This document shows positions 27,694 to 29,814 of a stretch of DNA of 31,947 bases, one piece after another (the first letter of the stretch is position 1; every line of letters starts with the position of its first letter). The position numbers and the translations under genes are program-made. Below the pieces are notes generated by a model that had not been told where the DNA came from, did not search any database, and saw only the letters and a list, made by a program, of their open reading frames with translations. This DNA comes from Spirochaetaceae bacterium (GTDB lineage: Bacteria; Spirochaetota; Spirochaetia; Treponematales; Rectinemataceae): the NCBI GenBank assembly GCA_016794765.1, contig JAEUJG010000409.1, positions 1 to 31,947 on the forward strand. Reading direction: 5' to 3'.

Positions 27694-28092
27694 TCAGAGC
27701 TCGCCGAGGGAAAGGTCGCCGTGGATCTTGTAAAGCCGGCCTTCGCGGTCGACCTCCAGCCGGCGCTCGGGGAAGTGTTCGGGGAGGAAACGGCGGAGGA
27801 GCTCGAGGACCTCGAGTTCGATCGCCTCGCGGGCGGCGGGCGGGATCTCCTCGCCGGCGGCCAGGTCGATCTCGACGAGGTAGCCTCGGCCGAGCCTCGA
27901 GCCGAAGCCGGGGTCGAAGAAGACGCCGAGGTTGAAGAGGCCGTCCGCCTCGGGATTGGCCGTCTCGCCGAGGGCGGGTCGGTTCCGCCGGAGCTTCCAG
28001 GCGCCGCCGTGGCGTTCCTCGAGGATCGTGTCGATCCGGTCGAACATCTCCTTCATCCGCGCGTCCCATTCGATCGTCTTTGGGTGGTACAC
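27694..28092 (-). CDS. Hypothetical protein (132 aa), divergent from asnS
   Basis: GGGGAGAAG RBS before GTG 28092. Reads MYHPKTIEWDARMKEMFDRID...GETANPEADGLFNLG. The ORF-track extension to 28344 runs across the opposite-strand leader and is probably spurious. Confidence 0.75.
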   Translation of the reverse strand: MYHPKTIEWDARMKEMFDRIDTILEERHGGAWKLRRNRPALGETANPEADGLFNLGVFFDPGFGSRLGRGYLVEIDLAAGEEIPPAAREAIELEVLELLRRFLPEHFPERRLEVDREGRLYKIHGDLSLGEL

Positions 28093-28122
28093 CGTCGCTT
28101 CTCCCCGGACAACTATAGCGCA

Positions 28123-28151
28123 TTGACCCGGGAGCCGGAGGGCGCTATCAT
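28123..28151 (+). promoter_or_regulatory. sigma70 promoter of the asnS leader
   Basis: TTGACC-17 nt-TATCAT; ATG 28158 lies 6 nt downstream, at the expected +1. Confidence 0.8.
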
Positions 28152-28157
28152 GAGGAC

Positions 28158-28241
28158 ATGCGCATGATCCATCTCGGCGCCGACAACAAGGGCCTCGACA
28201 ACAACGCCCCCGCCAATGGGGGGCGCCGGGTCGTCGCATAG
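28158..28241 (+). CDS. Asn/Asp-rich leader peptide 1 (27 aa: MRMIHLGADNKGLDNNAPANGGRRVVA)
   Basis: Translated by hand. 4 Asn and 2 Asp codons in codons 9-20. It overlaps the 5' strand of the antiterminator of attenuator 1. Confidence 0.75.
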   Translation: MRMIHLGADNKGLDNNAPANGGRRVVA

Positions 28242-28267
28242 CGCGGGAAAACCGCGTGAAGGAAGAC

Positions 28268-28295
28268 CGGCGCCTCGAGGGGCGCCGTTTTTTTT
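28268..28295 (+). terminator. Attenuator 1 terminator
   Basis: CGGCGCC/GGCGCCG 7-bp stem, 6-nt loop, T8. Its 5' arm (28267-28274) can instead pair with GGCGCCGG at 28222-28229. Confidence 0.88.
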
Positions 28296-28342
28296 CGCTC
28301 CGGGATCGCCGCGCGCGCCGCGGGCCCGGGAAAGGAAGTTCC

Positions 28343-28426
28343 ATGATCCACGCCCGAAGGCCGTATCACCCCTTGTCCTTGTTCGCCGTCAACAATACCA
28401 ACTCCAACAATCCCCGTCCGGCCTAG
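28343..28426 (+). CDS. Asn-rich leader peptide 2 (27 aa: MIHARRPYHPLSLFAVNNTNSNNPRPA)
   Basis: GAAAGGAAG RBS; 5 Asn among codons 17-23. The stop lies inside the 5' strand of antiterminator 2. Confidence 0.85.
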   Translation: MIHARRPYHPLSLFAVNNTNSNNPRPA

Positions 28427-28453
28427 CGTCTTCGAACCGTGATCGAAGCGTCG

Positions 28454-28482
28454 GGCCGGCCATTGCGCCGGCCTTTTTCTTT
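28454..28482 (+). terminator. Attenuator 2 terminator
   Basis: GGCCGGC/GCCGGCC 7-bp stem, 6-nt loop, TTTTTCTTT. Its 5' arm can instead pair with CCGGCCT at 28418-28424. Confidence 0.88.
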
Positions 28483-28530
28483 GCCCGCGCGGCCCCGTCG
28501 GGACCGCCGGAGCGACCCCAGGAGCGAACG

Positions 28531-29814
28531 ATGATCATCCATACGACACGATTGAAAGAGCGGGTCGGCGGCGAGGCGAGCCTCCGCGGTTGGCTCGTCT
28601 CCAAGCAAGCGAGGGGGCAGGTCGCCTTCCTGACCTTGCGCGACGGCGAGGGCACCGCCCAGCTCGTCTGCGAGCGCGCCGCCCTCGGCGACGAGGCCTT
28701 CGAGGCGCTCAAGGCCCTGCCGCTCGAGGCGCCGATCCTCGCGACTGGCCTCGTCCGCCTGCCCGAGGGCCGAGATCGACCGGAGCTCGCGCTCCGCGAA
28801 CTCGAGGCCGGGCCCTCGGCGCCCGACTGGCCGATCGGCCGCAAGGAGCACGGTCCCGATTTCCTCATGGAGCGGCGCCATCTCTGGATCCGCGCGCCCC
28901 GGCAGGCGGCCATCCTCCGGATCCGGAGCAGCCTCGAGTTCGCCTGCGTCGAGTTCCTCCACCGCGAGGGCTTCCACCGCTTCGACGCGCCCCTCGTCAC
29001 GCCGACCGCCTGCGAGGGCACGACGGAGCTCTTCGAGCTCGACTACTTCGGCAAGGCGGCCTACCTCTCGCAGAGCGCCCAGCTCTACGCGGAGGCGGGC
29101 ATCGCGGCCCTGGAGCGCGTGTACAGCCTGGGCCCCTGCTTCCGCGCGGAGAAGTCCGTGACGCGGCGCCACCTCACCGAGTTCTGGGGCGTGGAGCCCG
29201 AGATGGCCCATGTCGACGCGGTGGGCAACATGGCCTTCCAGGAGCGCTTCATCCGCGCCGTCCTCCGGAAGGTCGCGGAGGAGCGGGAGGGGGACCTCGC
29301 CTTCCTCGGGCGCGATCCCGAGAGCCTCGTCTTCGGTCCCGAGCCCTTTCCTGTCCTCCTCTACGACGAGGTTCTCGAGCGCCTGTCGCGCCAGGGCCGC
29401 GAGGTACCCTGGGGCGAGGATCTTTCCGTCGAGGACGAGGAGGCCCTGGCCGCGGGCTTCGCGACGCCCTTCTTCGTCTACAAGTATCCGGTGAAGTGCC
29501 GCGCCTTCTACATCGAGCCCGACCCCGCGGACCCGCGCCTGGCCCTCTCGAGCGACTGCCTGGCGCCCGGCCTCGGCGAGATCATCACGGGCGGCCAGCG
29601 GGCGAGCGACCACGACTTCCTGAAATCGCGCATCGTCGAGCACGGCCTCTCGCTCGATGACTTCGCCTGGTACCTCGACCTGCGGCGCTACGGCTCCGTG
29701 ACGCACTCGGGCTTCGGCATGGGGATCGAGCGCATGCTCCGCTTTGTCTGCGGCCTCCGCCACATCAGGGAGGCGATCCCCTTCGCGCGCACGCCCCAGC
29801 GCATCGCGCCCTGA
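28531..29814 (+). CDS. asnS: Asparagine-tRNA ligase (Bacillus/Thermus/archaeal-like subtype)
   Basis: OB-fold N-terminus (LRGW, FLTLRDG), RHLWIR, YLSQSAQLY, motif 2 FRAEKSVTRRHLTEFW and motif 3 HSGFGMGIER. AGGAG RBS before ATG 28531. Confidence 0.93.
   Translation: MIIHTTRLKERVGGEASLRGWLVSKQARGQVAFLTLRDGEGTAQLVCERAALGDEAFEALKALPLEAPILATGLVRLPEGRDRPELALRELEAGPSAPDWPIGRKEHGPDFLMERRHLWIRAPRQAAILRIRSSLEFACVEFLHREGFHRFDAPLVTPTACEGTTELFELDYFGKAAYLSQSAQLYAEAGIAALERVYSLGPCFRAEKSVTRRHLTEFWGVEPEMAHVDAVGNMAFQERFIRAVLRKVAEEREGDLAFLGRDPESLVFGPEPFPVLLYDEVLERLSRQGREVPWGEDLSVEDEEALAAGFATPFFVYKYPVKCRAFYIEPDPADPRLALSSDCLAPGLGEIITGGQRASDHDFLKSRIVEHGLSLDDFAWYLDLRRYGSVTHSGFGMGIERMLRFVCGLRHIREAIPFARTPQRIAP

Follow-up and report, generated by a model that had tools for sequence, protein, structure and literature searches.

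A probable asparagine leader-peptide attenuator, the first of two in series, upstream of asnS in a spirochaete genome

Introduction

What governs the expression of asnS, the gene for asparagine--tRNA ligase (AsnRS), in an uncultured spirochaete in which a promoter, a short open reading frame (ORF) and an intrinsic terminator precede the gene? The question is raised by the genome of a Spirochaetaceae bacterium (assembly GCA_016794765.1), and specifically by positions 1 to 31,947 of contig JAEUJG010000409.1, the whole stretch of DNA that was analysed and that is referred to here as the window. The element in question, leader 1, occupies 28158-28295 of the forward strand, and asnS, which encodes a protein of 427 amino acids, lies downstream on the same strand at 28531-29814. 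An earlier reading made from the letters alone (the sequence-only reading) had proposed that leader 1 encodes an Asn leader peptide and forms a four-segment switch before asnS, and this core of the proposal is borne out by folding energetics, by 18 orthologous loci and by a second locus in the same genome. Leader 1 is thus very probably a ribosome-mediated leader-peptide transcription attenuator whose signal is the charging state of tRNA-Asn and which is the first of two such attenuators in series before asnS, a reading that joins observed sequence elements, energetics, conservation and covariation.

Attenuation by leader peptides is textbook knowledge for Trp, His, Phe, Thr, Leu and Ile/Val. 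A literature search, which did not cover the case list of the Deinococcus deserti study considered below, found no paper describing leader-peptide attenuation for asparagine or asnS, and a full-text literature search found no paper on leader-peptide attenuation in spirochaetes. The mechanism proposed here is classical, and the predicted Asn attenuator before asnS is a fresh case within the class of leader-peptide attenuators.

Sequence elements and proposed mechanism

The promoter scan places a -35 hexamer, TTGACC, at 28123-28128, with TTGAC or TTGAT at the equivalent distance in 18/18 orthologous leaders, and a -10 hexamer, TATCAT, at 28146-28151, 17 nt after the -35 hexamer and 6 nt before an ATG. 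The ORF that begins with this ATG (28158-28241) comprises 27 codons and a TAG stop at 28239, and reads MRMIHLGADNKGLDNNAPANGGRRVVA. Two adjacent control codons, AAC AAC for Asn15 and Asn16 (28200-28205), lie directly 5' of segment 1 and overlap it. Segment 1, CGCCCCC (28205-28211), is the 5' arm of an anti-antiterminator, whereas segment 2, GGGGGCGCCGG (28219-28229), lies within the ORF, is a copy of the 3' arm of the terminator and can take either segment 1 or segment 3 as its partner. Segment 3, CCGGCGCC (28267-28274), serves both as the 5' arm of the terminator and as the 3' arm of the antiterminator, and segment 4, GGCGCCG (28281-28287), is the 3' arm of the terminator, which is completed by a T8 tract at 28288-28295. 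Segment 1 was located by a coordinate check and by folding, and segment 4 and the T8 tract by a coordinate check and a terminator scan.

The three alternative helices of the sequence-only reading were recovered at these positions. The 1:2 helix pairs CGCCCCC (28205-28211) with GGGGGCG (28219-28225); the arms of the 2:3 helix are GGCGCCGG (28222-28229) and CCGGCGCC, and they enclose a spacer hairpin, CGCGG-GAAAA-CCGCG (28242-28256), with a folding energy of -10.3 kcal/mol; the terminator arms are 28268-28274 and 28281-28287. A further extension of the 2:3 helix by GTC and GAC across a bulge had also been proposed, and the extra pairing does exist, its form being two 2-bp steps across 1-nt bulges. 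In a consensus scan, the terminator appears as a G+C stem of 8 bp at 28268-28287 followed by the T8 tract, and the 800 nt at 27900-28700 contain 4 terminator-like sites compared with 0.6 expected in shuffles.

The product of asnS scores 438.9 bits against NF003037 (cut-off 414) and 375.1 bits against TIGR00457 (cut-off 342.6), and it contains the tRNA-synt_2 and OB anticodon-binding domains of Pfam. Since the gene downstream is asnS, the leader is enriched in exactly those codons that match the regulated enzyme.

We infer the start site, the translation of the ORF, the stalling of the ribosome and the regulated read-through, which would be combined as follows. Transcription would start at or a few bases from the A of the ATG at 28158, and the 27-codon leader would be translated without a 5' untranslated region. 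When Asn-tRNA(Asn) is plentiful, the ribosome would run to the TAG at 28239 and cover segment 2, segments 3 and 4 would pair, and transcription would terminate at the T8 tract; when no ribosome is present, the 1:2 and 3:4 helices would form together and would likewise lead to termination. When Asn-tRNA(Asn) is scarce, the ribosome would stall with Asn15 or Asn16 in the A site, covering segment 1 and leaving segment 2 free. The free segment 2 would then pair with segment 3 before segment 4 is made, so that no terminator would form and transcription would read through to the second attenuator and asnS.

Asparagine codons and orthologous leaders

Of 401 genomes sampled from the order, 11 contain an AsnRS orthologue (66-85% identity), as do 12 metagenome contigs, two of which are duplicates of genome loci; together these orthologues form one clade with 100/100 support on a long stem. 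The asnS loci compared were those of the window, L002, L003, L031-L038 and L119-L130, and the analysis took in 18 first-position leaders. Wherever the upstream DNA of an orthologous locus was long enough, it contains a small ORF rich in Asn, with a hairpin and a T-run after it, examples of the leader peptides being ...LNNNGSPLGCRFVA, ...NTGLGNNRPSNEGRRAVV and ...NNNRNNNRASRSGA, and several of the loci carry tandem leaders, as the window does. The closest analogues are the leaders of L121 and L123, which are 27 codons long each and share N10, G12, L13, N15, N16, P18, G22, R23 and R24 with the window leader. In L002, which is of the same genus, a hairpin of other sequence occupies the place of the spacer hairpin; other relatives vary in this spacer.

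The Asn content of these leaders stands far from that of the genome. Leader 1 has 4 Asn among its 27 codons, compared with a genome-wide Asn frequency of 1.9% (binomial P = 0.0017), and the 18 leaders together have 15.8% Asn in 462 codons, each of them with at least three. An Asn-Asn pair lies 14-20 nt 5' of segment 2 in 17/18 leaders, as measured from the last codon of the pair. The 73 Asn codons of the 18 leaders are divided into 45 AAT and 28 AAC, and the two interchange at the Asn positions, an indication that selection acts on decoding and not on the RNA sequence itself. As AAT makes up only 13% of the Asn codons in the long ORFs of the window genome, its use in the leaders may mean that the less common codon is favoured where charging is sensed. 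These 18 leaders, and 28 leaders of a second gene family that is described below, retain the ORF with its in-frame Asn codons, its stop and the promoter-adjacent ATG, while the surrounding sequence diverges.

Controls yielded little of this kind. Among 148 loci with a distant AsnRS (<60% identity), 4 weak, chance-like matches were obtained; relatives also provided 12 other class-II synthetase genes (33-35% identity), with 0 Asn leaders among them. An alignment search of genome contigs with AsnRS returned, among the matches listed, only proteins of other phyla with at most 51% identity, and these served solely as negative controls and outgroups.

Other relatives possess a 33-38% identical class-II enzyme without any Asn leader, and the patchily distributed AsnRS type always travels with the attenuator. 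This patchiness, the single clade on a long stem and the constant company of the attenuator suggest that asnS and its attenuator form an accessory or transferred module.

Folding energetics and the modelled ribosome

The 140-nt RNA folds with -72.7 kcal/mol, compared with -55.3 ± 4.0 kcal/mol for 200 dinucleotide shuffles (z = -4.3; 0/200 as low), and its minimum-energy fold holds the 1:2 hairpin, the spacer hairpin and the terminator. The 1:2 hairpin accounts for -15.4 kcal/mol, the 2:3 composite including the spacer hairpin for -34.6 to -36.2 kcal/mol, and the terminator for -15.9 (core) to -19.3 kcal/mol (with its A-U extension). The competition envisaged in the sequence-only reading between 1:2 plus 3:4 on one side and 2:3 on the other is won by the former in the free RNA, with -68.7 kcal/mol in the terminator state and -61.2 kcal/mol with 2:3 enforced.

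A ribosome was represented by a footprint of the A site plus 12 nt, masked in the fold. When the A site is on Asn15 or Asn16, segment 1 lies under the footprint and the fold of lowest energy is the antiterminator; for the ribosome on Asn16, the antiterminator fold has -39.1 kcal/mol versus -36.9 kcal/mol with the terminator enforced. Among the modelled states, stalls at N15 and N16 thus give the antiterminator, whereas the terminator results without a ribosome, with stalls at N10 and N20, and with a ribosome at the stop codon. The idea that a ribosome paused at the Asn codons of 28185-28205 blocks segment 1 therefore applies to the pair at 28200-28205 and not to the codon at 28185, where a pause leaves 1:2 intact. 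A stall at the fourth Asn (28215) covers segment 2, and the further idea that a ribosome reaching the stop at 28239 would cover segment 2 agrees with the footprint model.

Similar behaviour is found across the 18 leaders. The minimum-energy fold of the free RNA contains the terminator in 17/18, and a ribosome at the stop codon leaves structure of 0 to about -7 kcal/mol. When the ribosome is placed on the last Asn-Asn codon and the transcript ends before segment 4, ORF nucleotides ~55-77 are paired with segment 3 in all 18, involving 5-7 of its 7 core nucleotides, and in the free RNA of 17/18 four or more nucleotides of segment 2 are paired with positions that would lie under a stalled ribosome.

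Covariation

Covariation was computed on an alignment (A3) of the 18 asnS leaders. In the terminator helix, 89.5% of the cells are paired, compared with 37-68% when the partner is slid, and the covariation score of 0.230 exceeds that of shuffles (0.144; 0/500 as high). The 7 core pairs of the antiterminator hold in 13-18 of the 18 sequences. Column 74 with column 138, which represents segments 2:3, is U-A in 10 sequences and C-G in 6, in step with the terminator pair of columns 138 and 150 (A-U or G-C). Segments 2, 3 and 4 thus covary jointly, as U-A-U versus C-G-C.

Points that weigh against the reading

Several observations weigh against the reading of leader 1 as an Asn-responsive attenuator or limit the weight of the evidence for it. 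The window copy has just two well-placed Asn codons, a stall at Asn20 is predicted to favour termination, and a stalled ribosome gives the antiterminator of this copy an advantage of just 2.2 kcal/mol, calculated with a footprint that is itself an assumption. The terminator remains the full-length minimum-energy fold in most relatives, and the model therefore needs kinetic (co-transcriptional) control, as in trp. The 1:2 helix shows no significant covariation in a fixed register (63.8% paired; 115/500 shuffles reach its score), and because its register is not kept across the alignment, the support for 1:2 comes from per-sequence folding rather than from covariation. The GGCGCC and GGCACC types of terminator need 1 to 4 changes on the AsnRS tree, which makes the compensatory evidence real but thin. 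The GAGGA at 28152-28156 is a possible Shine-Dalgarno sequence for the in-frame ATG at 28164 if the transcription start site (TSS) lies further upstream. Finally, seven public sequencing runs share words with the region, one of them an RNA run, and all were available as assembled contigs, so they are blind to 5' and 3' ends and to leader expression; apart from two foreign pieces, the RNA run yielded nothing but a contig of 200 nt within asnS (from 28804).

Start of transcription and translation

The only sigma-70-like site in 27900-28700 is TTGACC-17-TATCAT at 28123-28151 (0.0 expected in shuffles), and since its -10 hexamer ends at 28151, the ATG of leader 1 starts 6 nt after it, in accordance with what the sequence-only reading had noted. 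The predicted 5' end of the leader 1 transcript therefore lies, as we infer, no more than about 3 nt from 28158. A +1 at about 28158 would leave no room for a Shine-Dalgarno sequence within the transcript, and GAGGA would lie outside of it; in contrast, the second leader, asnS and the asnA-like gene described below each have an AGGAG-like Shine-Dalgarno sequence.

The arrangement recurs in the relatives, although the position of the ATG relative to the promoter was no search criterion in the choice of leaders. All 18 first-position leaders (18/18) have TTGAC or TTGAT, a spacing of 17-18 nt, a TAnnnT-like -10 hexamer, a further 6-7 nt (rarely 9) and then the ATG, and they have no conserved purine-rich motif between the -10 hexamer and the ATG; a -10 hexamer also lies close 5' of the ATG in most of the asnA-like leaders. 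The retention of the promoter directly 5' of the ATG supports the earlier suggestion of leaderless translation, and leader 1 is probably translated from a leaderless or near-leaderless start.

The rival that survives best accepts the attenuator and rejects its leaderless start: the TSS would lie further upstream, and the leader would be translated from the ATG at 28164 (MIH...) with GAGGA as its Shine-Dalgarno sequence. The GAGGA stands 7 nt 5' of this ATG, and leader 2 (28343) and the leaders of L121 and L123 likewise open with ATGATCC, reading MIH or MIR. In L121 and L123, however, this ATGATCC starts 6 nt after TATACT and has no Shine-Dalgarno sequence, and the leaders that it opens have 27 codons, equal to the length of the peptide from 28158, which favours the ATG at 28158 over that at 28164. 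The copy of L002 has a single ATG, 7 nt after its -10 hexamer, the sole sigma-70-like site in the 800 nt sets +1 at about 28158, and the -35 and -10 hexamers lie directly 5' of the ATG in 18/18 leaders, all of which makes this alternative unlikely.

The sequence ATGATC(C/A) is common to three successive start regions: ATGATCCAT at 28164, in frame within leader 1; ATGATCCAC at the start of leader 2 (28343); and ATGATCATCCAT at the start of asnS (28531).

Aspartate as a second signal

The sequence-only reading had raised the possibility that the leader also reports the status of Asp-tRNA, which would make leader 1 a dual Asn/Asp sensor in which a stall at the Asp codons (28182 and 28197) relieves termination as well. 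Asp14 (28197-28199) stands one codon before the Asn pair, and a ribosome stalled there would, in the footprint model, cover part of segment 1. The Asp codons are, however, poorly kept: Asp9 and Asp14 are replaced in the closest relatives, by V and N in L002 and by R and G in L121 and L123, the number of Asp residues per leader varies from 0 to 3, and 7 of the 18 leaders have none, whereas all have at least 3 Asn. The regulated genes, asnS and the asnA-like gene, are moreover Asn-specific. The Asp read-out is not supported because Asp is not conserved across the leaders, and a dual sensor appears quite improbable.

An RNA switch or a stand-alone unit

T-box and riboswitch leaders, too, act in the end through alternative terminator and antiterminator folds, and asnS is known to be under T-box control in Firmicutes. 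It could thus be argued that leader 1 is a switch that works independently of translation, either as a T-box-like sensor of tRNA or as a leader that binds a metabolite or a protein, and that its ORF is incidental. The Firmicutes T-box before asnS shares with the reading proposed here its input, uncharged tRNA-Asn, and its output, read-through of a terminator before asnS; it differs in that the RNA itself recognises the tRNA, with no ORF taking part, and a T-box was not matched here. A cmscan of 27900-28700 against Rfam at E up to 10 gave no match to a T-box or any other cis-regulatory family and none to an amino-acid leader family (Trp, His, Leu, Thr and similar), its sole matches being four unrelated ones with E 0.96 to 2. 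The RNA between promoter and terminator is only ~130 nt long, and the ORF takes up most of that span. Amid diverging sequence, 18 + 28 leaders preserve the ORF with its ATG, its stop and its Asn codons (AAT to AAC, 45 to 28). Such a switch is accordingly regarded as very improbable.

Just as little probability attaches to an independent small gene or small RNA that merely adjoins asnS without a regulatory link, which a promoter, a short ORF and a strong terminator would complete as a transcription unit, and for which attenuator-derived RNAs that can act in trans, such as rnTrpL of S. meliloti (PMC7298713), might be cited: no further promoter-like site was found between terminator 1 and asnS in the scan of 27900-28700, the element accompanies the asnS clade and the asnA-like gene and nothing else in the genome, and segment 2 copies and covaries with the terminator arm, neither of which such a gene would need.

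The second attenuator and a second Asn locus

Leader 1 is followed by a second attenuator in series (28343-28483, forward strand), which consists of an ORF reading MIHARRPYHPLSLFAVNNTNSNNPRPA (28343-28426), led by a purine-rich Shine-Dalgarno sequence, a terminator stem at 28453-28474 and a T-rich tail. Five Asn occur in seven codons of this ORF (NNTNSNN), and leaders of this type, NNxNSNN..PPA followed by the stop, are conserved in L002, L119, L121, L123, L033 and L037. The free RNA fold of the second attenuator has a z of only -1.5 versus shuffles.

The 3.7-Mb assembly was scanned for Asn-rich small ORFs with terminators, which recovered both asnS leaders and a single leader on contig C612; further matches were the region of the transfer-messenger RNA (tmRNA), an unrelated small basic ORF on C448 and, in the widest scan only, an Arg/Ser-rich frame on C371. 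The C612 locus (L203; 2460-736, minus strand) is again a tandem Asn attenuator. Its first leader, MAMTIGRLASSNRNNRNPPSAAGPASRA (2397-2311), is of the leaderless type, with TTGACC-17-TACCAT-6-ATG and a terminator with T9; its second leader (2229-2062) is led by a Shine-Dalgarno sequence, contains DNNNF and has its own terminator. The gene that follows (2016-736) encodes an asparagine synthetase A-like protein of 426 aa, which scores 113 bits against NF005054, below the cut-off of 309, and has no Pfam match.

Orthologues of this asnA-like gene occur in 31 of the 401 genomes, 30 of which (counting the window genome) belong to the window's own family. Each of the 28 asnA-like loci with upstream DNA (28/28) carries an Asn leader and a terminator, and 26/28 have a TTGAC or TTGAT box 27-33 nt 5' of the start codon of the leader itself; the box located in L210 and L220 is inside the ORF, before an internal GTG. 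The in-silico switch was reproduced in 21/28 of these loci.

A scan of the window genome for leaders of other amino acids gave only noise. The candidates on contigs C586, C643 and C451 were rejected, being ends of ordinary genes or lacking a plausible target.

GatB_N (PF02934) was not found in the assembly, which is 90% complete, and Asn_synthase (PF00733) gave one match only, of 24.4 bits, just above the cut-off of 21. It may be, then, that the window genome has no route to Asn-tRNA other than AsnRS and the AsnA-like enzyme.

A wider picture can be drawn tentatively, and is rather doubtful in its full extent: an uncultured family of spirochaetes might run an asparagine regulon of asnS and the asnA-like gene on tandem attenuators, with leader 1 leaderless and leader 2 led by a Shine-Dalgarno sequence, and the abundant terminated leader RNA might also act in trans, like rnTrpL. 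If this were so, expression would depend on two reports of Asn-tRNA charging, delivered via two modes of initiation.

Relation to known attenuators

The leader of E. coli pheST, pheM, is a single attenuator with Phe codons and a start led by a Shine-Dalgarno sequence. It resembles leader 1 in placing an ORF of cognate codons, an intrinsic terminator and a mutually exclusive antiterminator before the synthetase that charges the sensed tRNA. It differs in sensing Phe rather than Asn, in its Shine-Dalgarno start, in being single and in being proteobacterial, and there is no sequence relationship between the two.

The four-segment model and its two control codons come from the trp operon of E. coli (PMC4007540). 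As in trpL, 1:2 with 3:4 would terminate and 2:3 would read through, an adjacent pair of control codons immediately precedes segment 1, and segment 2 would be covered once the ribosome is at the stop codon. In S. meliloti, the trpL RNA begins with the ATG of the leader ORF (PMC7298713), a 5' end that leader 1 is predicted to share. The asnS leader differs from trpL in regulating a synthetase rather than a biosynthetic operon, in responding to Asn rather than Trp, and in being the first of two attenuators in series, the second of which is led by a Shine-Dalgarno sequence.

The nearest parallels to the leaderless start are found in two other groups of bacteria. In Deinococcus deserti, 14 predicted leaderless leader peptides are reported to precede tRNA synthetase and amino-acid genes, such as cysS, as mapped by differential RNA sequencing (PMC4007540). 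They share with leader 1 a TSS at the leader ATG right after the -10 hexamer, a leader rich in the cognate residue and an aminoacyl-tRNA synthetase downstream, and they differ in belonging to another phylum and in having measured start sites, where that of leader 1 is predicted. In mycobacteria, polycysteine leaderless short ORFs are described in the abstract of the report as cysteine-responsive attenuators (bioRxiv 10.1101/834739). At the level of that abstract, they resemble leader 1 in that a leaderless upstream ORF with cognate codons sets the expression of a downstream gene, and, set beside them, the asnS leader has a canonical intrinsic terminator with T8.

Asn attenuation would thus be conserved over two gene families and about 45 loci in one apparently spirochaetal lineage. 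What would set it apart from the known cases is the serial arrangement of two attenuators with different modes of initiation, and a target that is perhaps the only route to Asn-tRNA. The leaders could provide clean comparative evidence for translation of a leader peptide from a leaderless 5' end, as well as a useful test case of how tightly an essential synthetase can be throttled. For annotation, they suggest a rule: TTGAC-17-(-10)-6-ATG, an Asn-Asn codon pair, and then a copy of the terminator arm inside the ORF.

Other features of the window and genome

A divergent ORF, MKEMFDRIDTILEERHGG..., lies on the minus strand at 27694-28098, with its start near 28056-28098, ~60-100 nt from the promoter of leader 1, and it has no Pfam match. 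Its frame runs on without a stop across the attenuator to 28344, and gene callers could be misled by it.

The window genome has 68% G+C, is metagenome-assembled and consists of 651 contigs. Despite this G+C content, its FlaA genes, described below, mark it as most probably spirochaetal; its ribosomal protein L2, compared with solved structures in the PDB, matched best, by a small margin, a chain of 8fmw, a Borrelia ribosome, although these scores are too flat to be decisive by themselves. Its tmRNA, on contig C536 (5412-5765, complement), encodes the tag ANNNGTLALAA, the Asn run of which resembles the LNNNGT motif of the leaders and led to the false match in the scan for Asn-rich ORFs; the likeness is probably a coincidence. 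Three genes for FlaA, the flagellar sheath protein of spirochaetes, are present on contigs C578 and C139, the best of them with 241 bits, and the FlaA family was matched in 0/14 control genomes.

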